Part shown: positions 6,612 through 52,095 of the stretch, one piece after another
How positions within the stretch are numbered: the stretch's first letter is position 1
How the letters are laid out: the number at the start of each line of letters is the position of its first letter
Virus record (IMG/VR): IMGVR_UViG_3300027754_000069
Span: 1 to 64,000 of that record
DNA from: a virus
Length of the DNA stretch: 64,000 bases
Direction: 5' to 3' (one strand)
The notes under the pieces: model-generated
Told to the model about the DNA's origin: nothing
Databases searched by the model: none
What the model saw: the letters and a program-made list of their open reading frames with translations, nothing else
Program-made: the position numbers and the translations under genes

Positions 6612-7589
6612 TTACGCTGTTGCGATGCTTGACTTGGTCTGGATAACGTAACGTGCTTCCTTGCGGTAGACGTTCCATCCGAGTAGACCCTTCCAACCCG
6701 CTGGGCGGAAGCGCATCAACTTATCTGTAACTGGACCGATGACAGTCTTTGGCTCATATGAAACAGCCTCAACAAGAGCCTGCTTACCAAGGAGTACAGT
6801 TGCGTAAACCTTAGATGTACCTGAACCTGAGATTGACTCAGCACGTGGTGTTTCGATGTAACGAACCTGGTCGAAGATACCAATTTCACCATTCCATAGG
6901 TTGGCAACGCCAGCCTCTGTGTAGGTGTGTGGTAGCTGCCATGAAACGTTTCCAGATGATGCTGCTTCTGAACGAAGGTCATATGAAACATCTGGGTGAA
7001 TAAGTGCTGTGTAGAATCCACCATCACGTGGCTGAACAGATGCGCCACGAAGCTTTGCTACTGCCTTGCGAGCAAGTGCTGCAGACATGTATGGAGCTGT
7101 GGTTGAAGCAGATACGTTCTCACCGTTGATGGTTGATTCATCAGCAGATGATGTACCTGTGTAGCGCATTGTTGCAAGTGATGTTAGCTTTGCCCATACA
7201 AGTGAATCCAATGAATCGCGCATGTTGAATGCCAACATATCTGCGACCGCTGGGTCAATTGCTGATAGGGACTCTAGAGCTAGACGCTCTGTTGTGATGA
7301 CAGCATTACCGAATTCATCTACAACTACGTTCACCTTGTCGGTGTTTGATAGTGTAACTGCATCTGGGTCCTGTGTCTGAGTTAGTGCTGTAGTAGCACG
7401 TGATAGGTCCTTGTAGACCTGGAATACGACAGTGTTGCCTGGGTTTGTTACATCGACAGGGCGCTTGTCCGCAAACTTGCGGAACATTGGCTCTGAACGA
7501 AGGTTAAACTCAATCAGCTTGTCATACGAGGTTTGAATCAAGTTCGACAACGTTGACGTTGTCGTACTCGTTGCTGGTGTAGTAGGCAT
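6612..7589 (-). CDS. Major capsid protein (N4-gp56-like family)
   Basis: 325 aa after acidic scaffold, followed by hairpin; motifs EFGNAV, IHPDVSYDL, GEIG, DKLMRFRPAGWK. Confidence 0.9.
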   Translation of the reverse strand: MPTTPATSTTTSTLSNLIQTSYDKLIEFNLRSEPMFRKFADKRPVDVTNPGNTVVFQVYKDLSRATTALTQTQDPDAVTLSNTDKVNVVVDEFGNAVITTERLALESLSAIDPAVADMLAFNMRDSLDSLVWAKLTSLATMRYTGTSSADESTINGENVSASTTAPYMSAALARKAVAKLRGASVQPRDGGFYTALIHPDVSYDLRSEAASSGNVSWQLPHTYTEAGVANLWNGEIGIFDQVRYIETPRAESISGSGTSKVYATVLLGKQALVEAVSYEPKTVIGPVTDKLMRFRPAGWKGLLGWNVYRKEARYVIQTKSSIATA

Positions 7590-7624: not shown

Positions 7625-8074
7625 TTAGCCCTGAATTAGTTTCATTAACTCTTCTTTGGTACCAGCATTTCCAATACGAGATTGCAAATCCTGTCCAACG
7701 TAAGGGTCAATGTTTCCATCATCCAGGCTAGACATATGCTCATATGCTTGAGCATCTGAGGAGGCTTCCCCTCCTTCTTCAACGGCTTCGATACCGAAAG
7801 CATCACCGTATTCGTTCAACCATTCAGCAATCGCATCCGCGTCGGCTTCGACTTCAGATGGTATGAACTGAGCGATTCTTGGGTTTAACCCGAATGATTC
7901 TAGGATTTCTCCGACTGACGATTCGTGACTATAAGTCGTGAACTCTTCAATAAGCGATTCTTTTTCCTTCAATGATTTTTGAAGTCCATCGATTTGCTTA
8001 CGAAGTTTCTTGACTAAGTCACTACCGCTGTAGTCTTCGTCGTCTTCGATTTCGTATTCGTAGTTATCTGCCAT
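7625..8074 (-). CDS. Capsid scaffolding protein
   Basis: 149 aa, very acidic with coiled coil, immediately upstream of MCP. Confidence 0.75.
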   Translation of the reverse strand: MADNYEYEIEDDEDYSGSDLVKKLRKQIDGLQKSLKEKESLIEEFTTYSHESSVGEILESFGLNPRIAQFIPSEVEADADAIAEWLNEYGDAFGIEAVEEGGEASSDAQAYEHMSSLDDGNIDPYVGQDLQSRIGNAGTKEELMKLIQG

Positions 8075-8217
8075 TGCTTTTTCTCCCTATTAGTTAGTTG
8101 AAACCCTCATCGGGTTTGCACCACACGTACTCCTCACAAGGGGTAGTGATTCATAGACGTGATGACTTCCAGACTTATACACATCACCAGGGCTGGACAA
8201 TCTGGGACGGAACTTAA
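8075..8217 (-). ncRNA. Structured cis-regulatory RNA leader (H-type pseudoknot plus hairpins) upstream of scaffold gene
   Basis: Highly conserved with 49107..49247; three fully compensatory base-pair changes between the copies. Confidence 0.7.
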
Positions 8218-10176
8218 TTAAACGTCTGGGTTGTTTAGACGTCTTGTGAGACTTGCTCGGTCTATAGCACTGCGGGTTGAGAACTTTGCACGTTCCTTAG
8301 AAGCAAGCTTCTTGGTTTTAAGTGCAACTTCTGTTCCGCCTTTAAGCGATAACTGCTGGCGAGTAAGGTCTTCTTCGCCAGACTTCTCATTATATAGACC
8401 CATTAAACGCGCATAGTCTTGTTGATTACGAGCTGTTGTTTGGAATGCTGCTTCAGCTTCTCCTGCTTTACCAGCAGTAGTAATCTCTTCAGCAAAGCCC
8501 TTGGTTGCTTTCATTCCTGCGCGACCTGCTGCTCCACCAACTTCAGAAGCCGTGTACATCTTTTGTGCTTCTGTCGTTGAGTAAACAAATCGTTTGTCAA
8601 TAGCTCTAAATGCTTTATCTTTATCAAGAAGATAGGCAACCATATCTGCGTCAGTAAGACCGTAGTATTCTTTCAATGCCTTCTTGGCTTCTGGGTCAGC
8701 AGTTTGCAAAACATTCTTTGCAATGTTGACACGGTCTTTTAACTCATCTGCGCTAACAGAGTTAGCGATAAGATTAGTAAAGTCATTAAGCTCGTTATAG
8801 AAATCTGTTGGCAACCCAGCTGATTCCATGTATTGCTTGAAAGTTTTTTCTGTTTCAATATACTCTCGTGGAGTTAGAACTCTATCTCCTGGTAATCCCT
8901 TGCCAGATGCCATACGGTCACGTATAGTTTTGTTTGCAGCAAACCGTGTGTTGTATGCATCGCTTGTATAGATTGCGTTAATAACTTGGTCTTCGGTTGG
9001 CATAATGTTATCTTCATATACCTTGTCAATAGCTCCAAGCATAGAATCAATTAAGTCTTTACCAAGACCAAGATTCTGAAACATCTGCATTACAGAGTCA
9101 CGAGCACCAAAGTCTTTATATGAATCAATTACTTTTCCAGCCGAACCATCGGACATAACCTCAACGGTTTCAACAATGCCACCAGCTTTACGTTGGGTAC
9201 GGACTCCAACAACTTTTGGCTTCTTTGCATCCTCAGCAGCTTTAGCTGCAGCATCTGTTTGTAGTTTTACTAATTCTGCAATCTGGTCGGCAAGTGCTTT
9301 TACTTGTGCAGTTACTGCTGCAGTTGCTGCTGCTGCTGCAGCATCAGATGCATTTGCTGGTTCAACAATTTCTATGCCGTCTTTGTAAGATTTGCCATTG
9401 TAGTTTCCAGTATAAGTTTTTCCATTCTTGGTAAAAACACCATCAATCGTTTCGTATTTATCGGCAACTGTTTTAGCTTTACCGTCTACGTATTCTTGAC
9501 CATCGTAAGTACCAGTATACGGCTTACCATTCTTGTTAAGGACGCCGTTAACAGTTTCATATTTGTCTCCGCCTGGAATTTCTACAACTTTACCGTCTTT
9601 GTATTCTTTGCCTTGATAGGTTCCAGTATATGGCTCACCGTTCTTCATGAAAACGTCACCAACGGTTTCGTACTTGTCACCGCTTGGAGCTTCTACAACT
9701 TTACCGTCTTTGTAATTCTTACCATCCCATTCGCCAGTATATGGGTTGTTATTAATGTCATAAAGAATTCCGTCTTTTGTGACAAATCCATCTACACCAG
9801 TAGCTACTGTTGATGTAGTGGTATTATCTGTTGCTTGATATGCATCATAAATTTCTTGCTCGGCATCATTGAGCTGAAGACCCTTAGCTATTTTTGCTAA
9901 AATAGCAGAAAGGTCTGATGCTGTATATGTAGGGGTAGGTGTTGGAGTAGGTGTTGGAGTAGGTGTTGGAGTAGGTGTTGGAGTAGGTGTAACGGTAGAC
10001 GTGCCTATTTCATTTGCTGCATCAAACTCCGCATCATCAAGCATTTTGCCTTGTCCTGTTTTAGCAGCTGCAACTTGATTTCCTACTGTTACAAATGTAT
10101 TTAATGCATTGACTAAATCAGGGATACTTCCCCCGTCATCAGTCATCATTAAATTTGGATTTAAATAATTTGGCAT
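8218..10176 (-). CDS. Putative internal virion/ejection protein with PT linker and 4 tandem ~36-aa repeats
   Basis: C-terminal ~330 aa homologous to 49248..50864; repeats of type DKYETVxxVFxKNGxPYTGxYxGKxYKDGK. Confidence 0.6.
   Translation of the reverse strand: MPNYLNPNLMMTDDGGSIPDLVNALNTFVTVGNQVAAAKTGQGKMLDDAEFDAANEIGTSTVTPTPTPTPTPTPTPTPTPTPTYTASDLSAILAKIAKGLQLNDAEQEIYDAYQATDNTTTSTVATGVDGFVTKDGILYDINNNPYTGEWDGKNYKDGKVVEAPSGDKYETVGDVFMKNGEPYTGTYQGKEYKDGKVVEIPGGDKYETVNGVLNKNGKPYTGTYDGQEYVDGKAKTVADKYETIDGVFTKNGKTYTGNYNGKSYKDGIEIVEPANASDAAAAAATAAVTAQVKALADQIAELVKLQTDAAAKAAEDAKKPKVVGVRTQRKAGGIVETVEVMSDGSAGKVIDSYKDFGARDSVMQMFQNLGLGKDLIDSMLGAIDKVYEDNIMPTEDQVINAIYTSDAYNTRFAANKTIRDRMASGKGLPGDRVLTPREYIETEKTFKQYMESAGLPTDFYNELNDFTNLIANSVSADELKDRVNIAKNVLQTADPEAKKALKEYYGLTDADMVAYLLDKDKAFRAIDKRFVYSTTEAQKMYTASEVGGAAGRAGMKATKGFAEEITTAGKAGEAEAAFQTTARNQQDYARLMGLYNEKSGEEDLTRQQLSLKGGTEVALKTKKLASKERAKFSTRSAIDRASLTRRLNNPDV
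9935..9990 (+). repeat. 12-bp tandem repeat GTAGGTGTTGGA x4.7 (encodes Thr-Pro linker)
   Basis: Perfect tandem units starting 9935, 9947, 9959, 9971, partial at 9983. Confidence 0.9.
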
Positions 10177-10185
10177 CTTTTACCC

Positions 10186-11550
10186 CTACTGGATGAATCC
10201 AAAGTCTTGAAGAATGCGACTTGCAATTCTTGTCTTCTCTTCTTTTGCGTTCTGGGTTAAGTCCCACTTAGAACTTCGACGCGCCATCTTCTTTGCATCA
10301 AACAGATTAACTGGAGATACATTTCCTTTTTCATCTGTATTGTTTATAGTGCGCTGTACATATTCATCGTTAAGGTCTATTGAATCCGCATCTGTTTCCC
10401 ATACATCAGCTATAGCTTGTAACCATGGGTCTGCTGCTTGACGCAGCGTTTGACCTTGGTCAATTAGGTTAGCCAATCCAGGAGCAAATGACTTTGCTCG
10501 TGTTTGTAGTTGGTCATCAACTTGCTGTGGGTTTAATTTTCCACCGACAAGACCTTTCATGCTGGTTTCAAACCAGTTAGTAAATCCAGCGTTAGACATA
10601 GTCTGTGGATATCCGTAGTCCCATGCTTGCTTGTAAAGACTCTGTGCAAGAGTCTCAAGGTTTCCGCTAAGCTTTGTATATACGACCCTATCGCCAATCT
10701 TGTCGTTCTTAGTAAAGTTAATAGCACCAGACATAAGCGTATTAATATAGTCAGCATCAAAGCGAATAACTTTGCCATCTTGAATAATAGATTGTTTCAT
10801 CATTTGTTCTGCGTATTTAACAGCGTCTTGTGCTGTAATGTTTAATCCATTGGCAGCAAACTTCTTAACAATCTCGCTTGCATTTAGTTGTAAATCTGCA
10901 GCAAACTGTCCAGGATTTGTTTCTCTAGCCCAGTCATACTGACGTTGACTGTCAGTTTGACCTTGCCACCAAGATGTTCCTTTAATAATTTGTTCTTGTA
11001 GAAAAGGGTCCGTAATCATTGGTTCACCGTTTATACCAAGAATCTTATTAAGAGCTTCTTGTAAACTTTTGTCTGCTCCGATAACAGCAGCAGCAATACT
11101 AAATCGTGACTGCAGTTGCGCCAAAGAAAAAGTATCTTTTGTTTGTGATGAAGTCGTGCTCAGTGTTGCTGGGTCTACTGTAATTGTTGACCCTGGTACA
11201 ACTGCTGGAGGTTCAACAGGTTCAACAGGTACAACAGGTGCAACAGGAATTGCGCTAGGAACAAACCCACTCTTGTTATTAAGTGCAGTAACCTTGGCTT
11301 CATTCTGAAGTTTTTGTTTTTCTAGTGCAGATAAACGAGCAACCTCAGCAGCTGCAGCTACAGATGAAGTACTTGATGAAGTACTTTTTTCTGTACCAAT
11401 AGGAATCATAATCTTTTGATTTACACGAATAAGATTAGGATTAGTAATACTTGGGTTAGCTGCAAGAATCTTTGCTACTGTGGTCTTATTAGCTTTAGCA
11501 AGTGCACTAAGTGTGTCGCCTTTTTTAACTGTAATAGTTTTGTTTGCCAT
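10186..11550 (-). CDS. LysM-domain virion protein
   Basis: N-terminal LysM (TVKKGDTLSALAK...ANPSITNPNLIRVNQKI); homologue 50869..52095. Confidence 0.8.
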   Translation of the reverse strand: MANKTITVKKGDTLSALAKANKTTVAKILAANPSITNPNLIRVNQKIMIPIGTEKSTSSSTSSVAAAAEVARLSALEKQKLQNEAKVTALNNKSGFVPSAIPVAPVVPVEPVEPPAVVPGSTITVDPATLSTTSSQTKDTFSLAQLQSRFSIAAAVIGADKSLQEALNKILGINGEPMITDPFLQEQIIKGTSWWQGQTDSQRQYDWARETNPGQFAADLQLNASEIVKKFAANGLNITAQDAVKYAEQMMKQSIIQDGKVIRFDADYINTLMSGAINFTKNDKIGDRVVYTKLSGNLETLAQSLYKQAWDYGYPQTMSNAGFTNWFETSMKGLVGGKLNPQQVDDQLQTRAKSFAPGLANLIDQGQTLRQAADPWLQAIADVWETDADSIDLNDEYVQRTINNTDEKGNVSPVNLFDAKKMARRSSKWDLTQNAKEEKTRIASRILQDFGFIQ

Positions 11551-48647: not shown

Positions 48648-49106
48648 TTACCGTTTTAAGAAGTTGGTGAGCTCTTCCACTGAAGTAGCGTTGCTAATCA
48701 ATGAATGAATGTCACGACCCACTGATGGGTCGACATCACCATCTTCAAAATTCGACATTTGCTCAAATGCTTGAGCATCAGGGTCTTCTTCTGAAGACTC
48801 TGATTCATCAACGGCAGTAATGCCAAAGGCATCGCCGTATTCATTTAACCATTCAGCTACTGCTTCCTCGTCGGCTTCAATATCCGATGGAATAAATGCT
48901 GCGATTCTTGGATTGAGACCAAAACTTTCTAGTACTTCCCCGATAGCTGCTTCGTGACTATATGTCTGATACTCCTCAAGCTGTGAATCTCTCTCCTTGA
49001 TTTGCTTGGAAAGTTGATCTACTTGCTTGCGTAGTTTCTTTACTAAGTCAGTACCGTAGTCTTCGGTATCGTCTTCGAACGTTTCGTACTCGTTATATTC
49101 TGCCAT
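48648..49106 (-). CDS. Capsid scaffolding protein (unit B)
   Basis: Homologue of 7625..8074. Confidence 0.75.
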   Translation of the reverse strand: MAEYNEYETFEDDTEDYGTDLVKKLRKQVDQLSKQIKERDSQLEEYQTYSHEAAIGEVLESFGLNPRIAAFIPSDIEADEEAVAEWLNEYGDAFGITAVDESESSEEDPDAQAFEQMSNFEDGDVDPSVGRDIHSLISNATSVEELTNFLKR

Positions 49107-49247
49107 TGCTTTTTCTCCCTATTAGTTGTTGGACCCTCATCGGGTTTGCACCACACGTACTCCTCACAAGGGGAAGTGATTCATAGACGTGATGACTACC
49201 AGACTGATACTCGTTACCTGGGCTGGTCGATCAGGAACGGAACTTAG
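49107..49247 (-). ncRNA. Structured RNA leader, unit B copy
   Basis: Covaries with 8075..8217. Confidence 0.7.
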
Positions 49248-50864
49248 TTATACGTCAGCTTTTTTACTACGACGTCCAAGAGAGGACGCATCAATTGCTG
49301 ATTTCTGTGCAAACATTGCACGTTCTTTAGAAGCTAATCGCTTCTTCTTCATTGTTACATCTGCGCCACCTGCAAGAGCAAGCTCTTCACGAGCTAGATC
49401 TTGAGTGCCACCTTGTTCACCATAGAGACCTGTAAGTCTTTGGTAATCGGCTTGGCTTGCAGCTGCAGACTGGAAGGCTGACTCTGCTTGAGCACCTTTA
49501 CCAGATGTGTAAATTTCTTCTGCGAAAGCTTTGTCAGATAGTTGACCAGCACGTGCAGCAGCACCACCGATTTCGGCTGCGCCGTACATCTTCTTAGCTT
49601 CTTCGGTTGTGTACTTAAACTTAGAGTTAACTAAGTCAAAAGCCTTTTCGCTGTCAAGCATATATGCAGCAAGTTCGCCTTCTGTCCAACCGTAATATTC
49701 TTTAAGAGCATTCTTAGTGCTGTAATCAGCATTTTGCAAAGCATTCTTTGCAATATTAACACGGTCTGTAAGTTCGCTTACGCTGACTGAGTTTTCAATA
49801 AGACGACGGAAGTCGTCTTGTGTATCATAGAAACCAGTTGGTAATCCAGCCTCACGAAGAATTGATTCGTATCCTTTTTCTGCTTGGATGTATTCGTATG
49901 GTGTAAGAAGCTTATCGCCAGGTCGACCCTTGCCATCCTTCATACGTGCAGCAATTGTTTCATTTGCAGCAAAACGAGTCTTATATGCCTCACTGTCATA
50001 AATACTATTAAGGATCTGAGCATCGGTTGGCATAATGTTTTCTTCATATACCTTATCGATTGCCTTATTTAATGAATCAATAAATCCAGCACCAAGACCT
50101 GTGTTCTGAAACATCTTTAATACGGAATCTTTAGCACCAAAATCTGTGTATGTATCAACCATGTTGCCCATGGTTCCATCTGACATAACCTGCCAGACTT
50201 CTACAACTCCACCAGTTTTACGAATAGTCTTTTCGTATGCAACAGTCTTTGCTACTGGCTTATTAAATGTAGCCTGCATTGCTGCAATTTGATTAAGCAA
50301 ATCTGCAATCTGTGTATCAACTGCACCAGTTGCTGCAGTTACTGGATTAACAAATGTTGTAGATCCGCCATAGGTAGCAGTCGAAGTGCTTGTTGCTGTA
50401 CTTGTCGCAGTGCTGGTCGCAGTGCTGGTCGCAGTGCTAGTCGCAGTAGAGGTCGCGGTGCTGGTTGATGTTGCTGTTCCAGTATCGCTTGGTGTATATG
50501 GTAAATTTTCAATTGGTGCAGATGGTGCAGCAGGAGCTGCTGGTGCTTTTGGCAGTGGTGGCTCTGTATAAATCTTAGTGCCAGACCAAATCATAGAACC
50601 ATTGTTATACTTTGGATTGTTATCAATTGTTGGGTTGATAGCAAGAAGTTCTTTAACTGTCATGCCATTGTCTTTAGCAATTTGCCAGAATGTATCTCCT
50701 GGTTTTACTGTAACAAATTCACGTGGTGCTGGTGCTGAAGCAGCAACTGTACCTGACTTAGATGCAGCGGAAGCATTCTTCTCACTAGCCGTCATTCCAT
50801 AATCAGCTACTGCTGACGCAAGCGGTGAATAATCTCCGCCATCTGACATATAATCTCTTGGCAT
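49248..50864 (-). CDS. Putative internal virion protein with N-terminal LysM and (TSTA)n linker
   Basis: VTVKPGDTFWQIAK LysM; C-terminus homologous to 8218..10176. Confidence 0.7.
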   Translation of the reverse strand: MPRDYMSDGGDYSPLASAVADYGMTASEKNASAASKSGTVAASAPAPREFVTVKPGDTFWQIAKDNGMTVKELLAINPTIDNNPKYNNGSMIWSGTKIYTEPPLPKAPAAPAAPSAPIENLPYTPSDTGTATSTSTATSTATSTATSTATSTATSTATSTSTATYGGSTTFVNPVTAATGAVDTQIADLLNQIAAMQATFNKPVAKTVAYEKTIRKTGGVVEVWQVMSDGTMGNMVDTYTDFGAKDSVLKMFQNTGLGAGFIDSLNKAIDKVYEENIMPTDAQILNSIYDSEAYKTRFAANETIAARMKDGKGRPGDKLLTPYEYIQAEKGYESILREAGLPTGFYDTQDDFRRLIENSVSVSELTDRVNIAKNALQNADYSTKNALKEYYGWTEGELAAYMLDSEKAFDLVNSKFKYTTEEAKKMYGAAEIGGAAARAGQLSDKAFAEEIYTSGKGAQAESAFQSAAASQADYQRLTGLYGEQGGTQDLAREELALAGGADVTMKKKRLASKERAMFAQKSAIDASSLGRRSKKADV

Positions 50865-50868
50865 TTAC

Positions 50869-52095
50869 TTACCCCAGGAATCCGAAGTCGCGGAGAATCG
50901 TTGATGCAATCTTGGTCTTCTCCTCTTTTGCTGTGCTTGTGTAATCCCAGTTGCCAGAACGACGAGCCATTTTCTTGGCATCGTAAAGGTTCATGGTTCC
51001 AACATTTCCTTTTTCATCTGTGTAGTTAAGGGCTCGTTGTACATAATCATTGTTAAGATCTAGTGAGTTAACATCCTGTTCCCATGTATCAGCAATTGCT
51101 GTTAACCATGGATCGGCTGCGTCGCGTAGCGTCTTGCCTTGAGATAATTGTGTTGTAAGACCAGGAAACATTGACATTGCTCGCTTTTGAAGTTCATTAT
51201 CTAGATCTTCTGCGTTAAGAGTTCCAGCAATAAGACCTTTCATGCTGTTCTCAAACCAGCCTTCGAATCGTGTATTAGACATGCTGTTAGGGAAACCATA
51301 TTCCCATGCTCGCTTGTAAAGCTCGTTGGCTACAGTCTCTAATTTGCCAGTTAGGTTATAGATTGTTTTGTCGCCAATAACACTCTTTTTGCTAAAGTCA
51401 ATTGCCTTAGACATAATCTTATTAAGAAATTCTTGGTCGTAGCGAACAACCTTTCCATCTTTAATAATAGCTGACTGCATCATTTGCTGTGCATAATCAA
51501 TAGCTTGTGCTGCTGTAATGTTTATACCATTACCCATAAATTGCTTAACAATGTTGCTTGCATTAAGTTGCAAGTCTGCAGCGTATTGACCTGGGTTAGT
51601 TTCTTTATAATAAGCGTATTGACGCTGAGTATCAGTTTGGTTCTTGTACCAAGTAGTACCCTGAATCATCTGAGTCATCAATGCCTCAGATGTAATTCCT
51701 TGTTCAAGGATTGAATTTAAGATATTCTTGAGGCTGTCATCAGCACCAATAACACCAGCAGCAATACCAAACTTGGCTTGTAATGTAGCCATGTCTAGCT
51801 TATCTACGTTTGTTGCAGCCTGTGTTGATGTACTTGTAGATGTTGCAGTAGAAGTTCCAGTACTAGTTCCTGTATTATTGCCACTGGTTGCATTGTTAAC
51901 TGCTGTGTTTAAGCCAGTTGATGCACCAGACTGTGTTGGCATCTGAAGGACAGTACCACTAAAGATTGTGCTTCCGCCGTTATATTTTGGATTAGTCTTT
52001 AAGAATGGATTGGCTGCAATAATCTTTGCGGTTGTTGTTCCGTTAGCAGCTGCAATTTTACTAAGCGTATCGCCAGTTTTAACTGTATATGCCAT
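50869..52095 (-). CDS. LysM-domain virion protein (unit B)
   Basis: YTVKTGDTLSKIA; homologue of 10186..11550. Confidence 0.8.
   Translation of the reverse strand: MAYTVKTGDTLSKIAAANGTTTAKIIAANPFLKTNPKYNGGSTIFSGTVLQMPTQSGASTGLNTAVNNATSGNNTGTSTGTSTATSTSTSTQAATNVDKLDMATLQAKFGIAAGVIGADDSLKNILNSILEQGITSEALMTQMIQGTTWYKNQTDTQRQYAYYKETNPGQYAADLQLNASNIVKQFMGNGINITAAQAIDYAQQMMQSAIIKDGKVVRYDQEFLNKIMSKAIDFSKKSVIGDKTIYNLTGKLETVANELYKRAWEYGFPNSMSNTRFEGWFENSMKGLIAGTLNAEDLDNELQKRAMSMFPGLTTQLSQGKTLRDAADPWLTAIADTWEQDVNSLDLNNDYVQRALNYTDEKGNVGTMNLYDAKKMARRSGNWDYTSTAKEEKTKIASTILRDFGFLG

Follow-up and report, generated by a model that had tools for sequence, protein, structure and literature searches.

A phage head needs hundreds of copies of its scaffold and capsid proteins, made at the pace of assembly, and to our knowledge the post-transcriptional means by which phages achieve this remain largely unknown. 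In phage P22 the synthesis of the scaffold protein is autoregulated post-transcriptionally, an observation that is reportedly due to King, Casjens and Wyckoff; we know of no report that defines the RNA target of this autoregulation. The operator of T4 gene 32 consists of a 5' pseudoknot followed by unstructured RNA. Two further kinds of RNA bear on the locus described here: the UCCC-loop small RNAs, which act on Shine-Dalgarno (SD) sequences in trans, and the exonuclease-resistant RNAs of plant viruses, in which the loop of a hairpin pairs with its own 3' tail. We are aware of no pseudoknotted 5' stabiliser described for bacteria or phages.

The RNA that we describe here is the leader of a putative scaffold gene of uncultured phages. 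By analogy it appears most like the leader of T4 gene 32, and it would fit the genetic precedent of P22. The likeness to T4 gene 32 lies in an H-type pseudoknot at the 5' end, after which A/U-rich RNA without structure extends as far as the ribosome-binding site, and in a product, predicted here to be regulated, that is needed in stoichiometric amounts. Our leader has this order of pseudoknot and then unstructured RNA to the SD; unlike the T4 operator, it carries an additional element between the pseudoknot and the SD, a long hairpin whose loop is C-rich. The two leaders share no sequence or model similarity, and the protein encoded downstream of ours is an acidic scaffold rather than a single-strand nucleic-acid-binding protein. 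The parallel with P22 is that the gene is of the same class and that the P22 control acts at the level of the mRNA, whereas the phages are unrelated and control through the present leader is predicted.

Genome setting of the leader

The stretch of DNA analysed (the window, 64,000 nucleotides) comprises positions 1-64,000 of the IMG/VR record IMGVR_UViG_3300027754_000069, which is 82,688 bp long. Two related genome units of about 41 kb, A and B, lie head to tail in this record with an offset of 41,032 bp. The units are clearly different, and the record, although scored as '100% complete', probably arose as an assembly chimera or by concatenation of two strains.

All of the features considered here lie on the minus strand. 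In unit A, a LysM/lysin-like gene (10186-11550) is followed by a gene for a protein of 652 aa that belongs to phrog_8424 and has no assigned function (8218..10176, with its stop codon at 8220-8218). The intergenic leader of 143 nt comes next (8075-8217). Both the scaffold and the capsid genes lie downstream of it: the putative scaffold gene (phrog_7813) at 7625..8074, with its AUG at 8074-8072, and the gene for the major capsid protein (phrog_1357, PF13252) at 6612..7589. Unit B has the same gene order, and the covariance model R1, described below, finds a whole copy of the leader there at 49104..49249 with a score of 174.9 bits, overlapping both edges of the intergenic gap at 49107-49247. The leader had been picked out in a sequence-only reading of the window, whose sequence, coordinates and strand were all correct, and its central statement, that the minus (sense) strand encodes a structured RNA with a pseudoknot directly ahead of the scaffold-capsid genes, is borne out by the analysis below.

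The product of the phrog_7813 gene is a protein of 149 aa with an acidic N-terminus and a conserved basic segment, DLVKKLRKQ; its putative role as a scaffold is judged from position, size and composition. In alignments A2 and A6 the most conserved N-terminal feature of the scaffold is this basic (D)LVKKLRKQ, near residue 20. The closest cultured relatives by capsid protein are the Streptomyces phages of the Beephvirinae (43-45% identity), and the capsid protein of Caudovirales sp. ct2KA10, an uncultured record, lies at the same distance. Upstream of the leaders, the genes at 8218-11550 and 49248-52095 carry LysM domains and have lysin or transglycosylase-like PHROG matches (phrog_6654, phrog_8424); the counterparts of the two upstream genes in Streptomyces phage Manuel are annotated as minor tail proteins (peptidase, glycosylase). 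Within the capsid gene, units A and B share 97% identity over a 5' stretch of about 90 nt (7423-7512, minus strand), against 81% over the whole gene, and the same stretch is the depth peak in all four RNA runs. Its conservation could reflect a recombination tract, strong constraint on codons or peptide, or another RNA element.

Leader and scaffold gene are joined on contigs from RNA libraries. Four metatranscriptome runs have contigs that span the capsid gene, the scaffold gene and the leader, and do not cover the 200 nt upstream (8217-8418). No RNA-library contig reaches into the upstream gene; that gene is poorly conserved and these data are contigs, and the ends that fall in P1 arise because of strain variation there. 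On the sense strand, we found no sigma-70-like promoter or terminator.

The position of the leader is fixed relative to the ribosome-binding site of the scaffold gene, and its upstream side is variable. Among the matches listed, 9-20 nt separate the upstream stop codon from the P1 loop that follows it in 113 of 119, which implies that a terminating ribosome would melt P1. One divergent clade (locus L349, 1550-1597, minus strand) has an insert of ~55 nt between the upstream stop and the pseudoknot. The insert contains a T-arm-like hairpin, GUAAGAG-UUCGAUU-CUCUUAC; ARAGORN calls no tRNA in it, and it may be a tRNA remnant. In Streptomyces phage Manuel (MG518519, 4473-6338) the homologous slot is filled by 19 tRNA genes, after which come a hairpin whose loop is UUCCCUA, a U-tract, and then CACUACUCACUAGGAGAACAGCAUG. 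This last sequence resembles the SD-proximal linker of the window.

Two candidate identities for the element were rejected. It is not a tRNA-like element, as ARAGORN calls no genes in the window or in six divergent loci and the Rfam tRNA model gives no match. Nor is it a recoding pseudoknot for frameshifting or readthrough: the downstream frame is closed, indels vary the length, and the ~55-nt insert is present in one clade.

Architecture and covariation

The leader is a strongly conserved folded RNA, whose helices covary in two independent sequence sets. Its architecture is an H-type pseudoknot followed by a rod-like hairpin: a stem, P1, of 7-8 bp carries a loop in which (N)CCAG pairs with CUGG(N), located 9 nt past the stem. 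Read 5' to 3' along the minus strand of unit A, a 5' flank UUAAGUUC (8210..8217) separates the upstream stop from P1; its family consensus is UAGAAUCC, in which UCC is nearly invariant. The 5' strand of P1, CGUCCCAG (8202..8209), which is supported by covariation, leads into a loop of 11 nt, AUUGUCCAGCC (8191..8201; family consensus AYYNNCCAGCC). The length of this loop is constant and its CAGCC is invariant, and it contains the 5' strand of the pseudoknot, UCCAG (8197-8193). The 3' strand of P1, CUGGUGAUG (8182..8190), has a bulged U at 8186 and is followed by the 9-nt linker L3, UGUAUAAGU (8173..8181; family consensus NGUANNAGN), in which GUA and AG are invariant in 159 copies. The 3' strand of the pseudoknot, CUGGA (8168..8172), pairs with UCCAG. 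The resulting loop lengths of 4, 2 and 9 nt suit an H-type pseudoknot built from helices of 8 bp and 5 bp.

An invariant AGU joint (8165..8167) connects the pseudoknot to a long irregular hairpin (8119..8164), and the G of the joint pairs with C8118 to close this hairpin. Because a single nucleotide, an A, separates the pseudoknot from the rod, the two are likely to stack coaxially. The hairpin begins with P2, CAUCAC(GU)/(GU)GUGGUG, whose CAUCAC/GUGGUG core pairs 8164-8159 with 8124-8119. Above P2 come a short helix (UAU/GUA), a 3x3 internal loop (GAA/GGA), P3 (UCAC/GUGA) and the apical loop UACCCCUU (8145-8138), for which the family form is (U)NCCCC. A further hairpin, P4 (AAACCC-GAUGA-GGGUUU, 8101..8117), is present only in the clade of the window. 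The remainder (8075..8100) is an unstructured A/C/U-rich linker, CAACUAACUAAU, that leads to the SD, AGGGAG (8088-8083). Across the family ~20-45 nt of unstructured A/C/U-rich RNA lie 3' of the fold, and the SD is GGGAG or GGGUGG. The SD is unpaired in all folds, and the unpaired RNA immediately 3' of the fold contains both it and the AUG; the distance from the pseudoknot (8209-8168) to the SD is 80 nt, with the long hairpin between them.

Comparison of the two units gave the first indication of constraint in the sequence-only reading, which had described the leader as better conserved than the flanking coding DNA. This is the case: the leaders of A and B are 87% identical, whereas identity is 67% in the scaffold gene and 81% in the capsid gene, and only 60% over the final 600 nt of the gene upstream. 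The differences between A and B were also said to follow a structure, and the 11 that fall in the first 60 nt of the leader indeed include three compensatory pairs (C-G to U-A, A-U to U-A and U-A to A-U) and one change from G-U to G-C.

Wider sampling places the structure on firmer ground. For the clade of the window we assembled 78 distinct leaders (alignment A4), collected through an exact 19-mer in IMG/VR, a scan with the scaffold protein, and a degenerate pattern in metagenome contigs. On A4, 97.6% of the cells of the proposed structure are paired and 17 of its 33 pairs show double-sided changes, values that were reached by none of 500 shuffles; when the 3' partners were slid by 1-3 columns as a control, pairing fell to 27-45%. 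The top scores of an unbiased mutual-information scan include pairs from P1, P3, the pseudoknot and P2, and several further high scorers outside the helices are alignment or clade effects. The minimum free energy (MFE) of the leader is no better than that of shuffled sequences (z-scores of +0.36 and +0.83), by a method that cannot model a pseudoknot, and the structural support thus rests on covariation and not on thermodynamics. The presence of G-U pairs places the structure on the sense strand.

In the 78 copies of A4 the strands of P1 (8209-8202 with 8190-8182) are 100% paired and five of the eight pairs covary, with pair types such as G-C, G-U and A-U at a single position. In 76 distinct divergent copies covariation extends to all eight pairs, a pair taking as many as six types, and 98.4% are paired. 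Over at least 159 distinct leaders P1 takes the form of 46 different helices, which are 98-100% paired. The stem that had been proposed from units A and B alone is thus confirmed.

For the pseudoknot, which the sequence-only reading had given as UCCAG/CUGGA, the result is divided. Its core, CCAG/CUGG, stands: it is near-invariant, three copies have UCAG/CUGA, a change from C-G to U-A on both sides, and no one-sided change occurs. The fifth pair did not hold throughout the 159 copies, being U-A in 35 copies, A-U in 83, G-U or G-C in 7 and mismatched in 34 (~20%).

The second domain had been drawn with CACGU/ACGUG around UCAC/GUGA. The inner helix, P3, survives with covariation at four of four pairs in the 78 copies, whereas in the CACGU/ACGUG register double changes are lacking and broken cells are more frequent. 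The register CAUCAC(GU)/(GU)GUGGUG adopted here for P2 is 99% paired, with a change from A-U to G-C, and the short helix, UAY/GUA, shows changes from U-A to C-G as well as the pair types C-G, U-G or U-A. In divergent clades the second hairpin has an outer helix of 5 bp (GU and three variable nucleotides), which is paired in 96-100% of cases and shows many compensatory combinations. This helix flanks an AGC/NGG internal loop that is invariant, and the apical loop is CCCC. The ACCC/GGGU hairpin of the earlier description, our P4, is real within the clade of the window, where three of its pairs covary, and is missing from most clades. In the larger collection of homologous leaders that the sequence-only reading had called for, covariation is present in every helix.

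The suggestion that the CCCCU loop pairs with the SD did not survive this sampling, as covariation does not support it once clades are considered. The X-Y pair flanking the proposed loop-SD helix is paired in 71% of cases against 52% in shuffles, a signal carried by clade structure; outside the clade of the window it is not significant, and the largest divergent clade has CCCCG opposite AGGG. An alternative pairing of GUGAUG, in the 3' strand of P1, with CAUCAC is available in unit A and absent from unit B. We found no conserved alternative, switch-like pairing.

Distribution of the family and comparison with known RNAs

The covariance model R1 was built from A4. It gives 77 matches, one in each genome unit of the window and one in each related locus, and when applied to divergent clades it gives 76 matches in 76 loci (705 kb). 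When its filters are switched off, R1 detects a further copy, in ct2KA10 (42 bits, E about 5e-9); it occupies the same slot, after the stop of the ORF upstream and ahead of the AUG of a scaffold gene whose product is 26% identical. P1 of this copy is wholly different (CUAACGG/CCGUUGG), whereas the loop of 11 nt (ACCCACCAGCC) and the linker (CGUAUAAGA) are kept, as are CUGGU, the AGU joint and a hairpin whose loop is UUCCCC. P4 is absent from ct2KA10 and from other clades. A relaxed pattern made from the shared features retrieved at least 119 stretches from IMG/VR, mostly from further divergent clades on contigs of ~39-40 kb, and the total comes to at least 159 distinct leaders from viral and metagenome contigs. 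Across this family stems are completely replaced and loops are nearly invariant, and the pseudoknot domain and the CCCC-loop hairpin are kept down to ~26% identity of the scaffold and 45% of the capsid protein.

The leader is present once per genome unit or locus and is always directly 5' of a scaffold homologue. The ORFs that follow ten divergent leaders, taken one from each, all encode scaffold-like proteins of 150-165 aa with an acidic N-terminus and a (D)LVKKLRK-like segment, and a capsid-like gene comes next. Scaffold protein representatives P0123-P0139 are 34-54% identical, and a scan of IMG/VR with them recovered only the known clade. In GenBank phages the family was found only in the uncultured ct2KA10, and the Streptomyces Beephvirinae lack the pseudoknot domain. 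A search of 185,579 bacterial and archaeal species genomes returned one true match, on a phage-like contig of ~5.7 kb (RHAS01000055.1, 5,760 bp). This contig is binned with an Actinomycetota metagenome-assembled genome, which lends weak support to an actinobacterial host. The phages that carry the leader are uncultured freshwater phages that number in the hundreds and probably have actinobacterial hosts.

Rfam 15 gives no match in the 64 kb window, and for the leader and the ct2KA10 copy it gives only chance-level matches at E up to 10. The leader is therefore a new RNA family by comparison with Rfam 15, and the sequence-only reading, which could place it in no known RNA family, agrees with this covariance-model check. 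A survey published in 2023 reports 8,495 unnamed candidate RNAs from IMG/VR (Fremin et al., 2023; PMC10690425).

Several known RNAs resemble parts of the leader. The pistol ribozyme (RF02679) shares a hairpin loop that forms a pseudoknot with a downstream strand, which is seen here as (N)CCAG with CUGG(N), together with a purine-rich linker, a following hairpin and an association with phages. The conserved nucleotides differ, however, and there is no candidate strand between L3 and the 3' strand of the pseudoknot for the pistol P2 helix, which encloses that strand, the cleavage site and P3; a search with RF02679 at E up to 10 was negative. With freshwater-2 RNA (RF02980), a cis-regulatory motif of freshwater metagenomes, the leader shares a small hairpin followed by AAGGAGAAAA and an AUG. 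The match to this model (8072-8117) covers only the P4 hairpin and the SD and is far below threshold, reaching 15.9 bits (E = 4.1) where the gathering score is 49.9 and lacking the middle 37 of the 84 model positions; the similarity may reflect a common 'small hairpin plus A-rich SD' layout of freshwater phage leaders. In the riboswitches whose pseudoknot masks the SD (preQ1-II, SAM-II and SAM-V) the ribosome-binding site lies within the pseudoknot or immediately next to it, whereas here the SD stands 80 nt away on the 3' side. The exonuclease-resistant RNAs of plant viruses and bacterial stabiliser hairpins, such as those of the ompA type and the SP82 RNase III site, resemble the leader in being compact folds at the 5' edge of a highly expressed message.

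Possible roles of the leader

Our preferred reading, to which we assign a probability of roughly 0.4, is that the leader is a cis-acting post-transcriptional element that is recognised by a conserved factor and controls translation or decay. The pseudoknot and the rod would form the recognition surface for a conserved trans-acting factor, which could be free scaffold protein, binding through its basic DLVKKLRKQ segment, or a host component. Once bound, this factor would either reduce the loading of ribosomes at the open ribosome-binding site nearby or bring about decay, and the synthesis of scaffold and of the downstream capsid protein would thereby be matched post-transcriptionally to the demands of assembly. 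The narrower proposal of the sequence-only reading, that the element sets the scaffold:capsid output, gains no support from the analysis, and both genes lie downstream of the leader. The fixed, single-copy place 5' of the scaffold gene and the retention of the loops while the proteins diverge favour this reading, and the near-invariance of the core must reflect partner binding or catalysis. Weighing on the other side are the lack of any conserved switch-like pairing and the weakness of loop-SD pairing, which amounts to at most 3-4 bp and has no covariation support beyond the clade of the window. As to the identity of the factor, the conserved basic segment speaks for the scaffold itself: it is degenerate (PKALRDAY) in the scaffold homologue of Manuel, whose leader lacks the pseudoknot. 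However, the Manuel comparison is a single case and the protein is strongly acidic overall. The loops of the RNA are invariant where scaffold identity falls to ~26%, and a host factor, a ligand or a catalytic core therefore fits better than the scaffold.

Nearly as good as the favoured control element, if still doubtful in itself, is an explanation in which the leader is a 5'-end stabiliser or processing boundary. The late transcript would be cut upstream, the pseudoknot and rod would block 5'-to-3' decay (the entry of RNase J or RNase E), and the scaffold-capsid mRNA, stable, abundant and open at its ribosome-binding site, would accumulate relative to the low-copy upstream genes. The element does lie at the border between low-copy lysin/tail-type genes and high-copy scaffold and capsid genes, its SD is unpaired with no switch evident, and a hairpin loop that pairs with the 3' tail is the topology of the plant-virus exonuclease-resistant RNAs. 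The slot in Manuel is also suggestive, as its 19 tRNA genes need processing and are followed by the UUCCCUA-loop hairpin and a similar SD-proximal linker, and the T-arm-like remnant in the slot of one clade points in the same direction. That the RNA contigs stop short of the 200 nt upstream is a weak hint, the data being contigs and the upstream gene poorly conserved, and strain variation accounts for the contig ends in P1. The known bacterial 5' stabilisers, moreover, are simple hairpins, and a stabiliser has no need of near-invariant loops. A self-cleaving ribozyme of a new class would cut the polycistronic late transcript before the scaffold gene; stems that covary freely around loop and linker nucleotides invariant in ~160 distinct copies form the pattern of a catalytic core. 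The size of ~50-100 nt, the pseudoknot and the phage-only spread recall the contexts of pistol, hatchet and twister-sister ribozymes, and the order of hairpin loop, pseudoknot, short joint and hairpin reproduces part of the pistol layout. We nevertheless consider a ribozyme distinctly unlikely: the ribozyme models of Rfam yield no match at E up to 10, the leader lacks the P2 helix of pistol, we found no evidence of a cleavage site, and a strictly fixed place beside the ribosome-binding site of one gene is more typical of cis-regulators. Joined into one proposal, these two ideas would make the leader a new catalytic or enzyme-blocking phage RNA, either a ribozyme that excises the scaffold-capsid message or a bacterial-world equivalent of the viral exonuclease-resistant RNAs that blocks 5'-to-3' decay of the RNase J type, with the tRNA array in the corresponding slot of Streptomyces relatives as a functional analogue that yields the same mRNA 5' end; we regard this as unlikely, if somewhat less so than the ribozyme taken by itself.

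A riboswitch that senses a metabolite or ion, with the pseudoknot domain as its aptamer, is improbable. The location in a 5' untranslated region and the invariant junction nucleotides of the pseudoknot, like those of the SAM-II, preQ1 and fluoride classes, are in keeping with it. However, the leader has no expression platform, as there is no terminator and the SD is outside the pseudoknot, and no Rfam family matches. The single phage-like contig found among 185,579 bacterial and archaeal genomes implies that the element has no host counterpart, unlike known phage-borne riboswitches. Least probable of all, in our estimate, is that the conserved stretch acts as a DNA-level signal (a promoter, a packaging signal or a protein-binding site) or is processed into a trans-acting or structural RNA. 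The string AAUAGGGAGA resembles the start region of a T7-type promoter; it occurs only at the two leaders and is not otherwise repeated in the 64 kb window, the number of matches there is that expected by chance, and the string coincides with the SD, for which reasons we rejected the promoter assignment. The C-rich loop could target SD sequences in trans in the manner of the UCCC-loop small RNAs. DNA-level readings are contradicted by the covariation and the G-U pairs, because these are strand-specific signatures of RNA, and the sense strand shows neither a sigma-70-like promoter nor a terminator; the fixed position relative to the scaffold SD argues against a DNA signal and a trans-acting RNA alike.

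Taken together, our data describe a precisely delimited RNA of ~100-145 nt, proven by covariation and carried by hundreds of uncultured freshwater phages, that is a ready candidate for a new Rfam family. The role that we predict for the leader from its structure and place is that it most likely controls the amount of head-building protein that these phages make.
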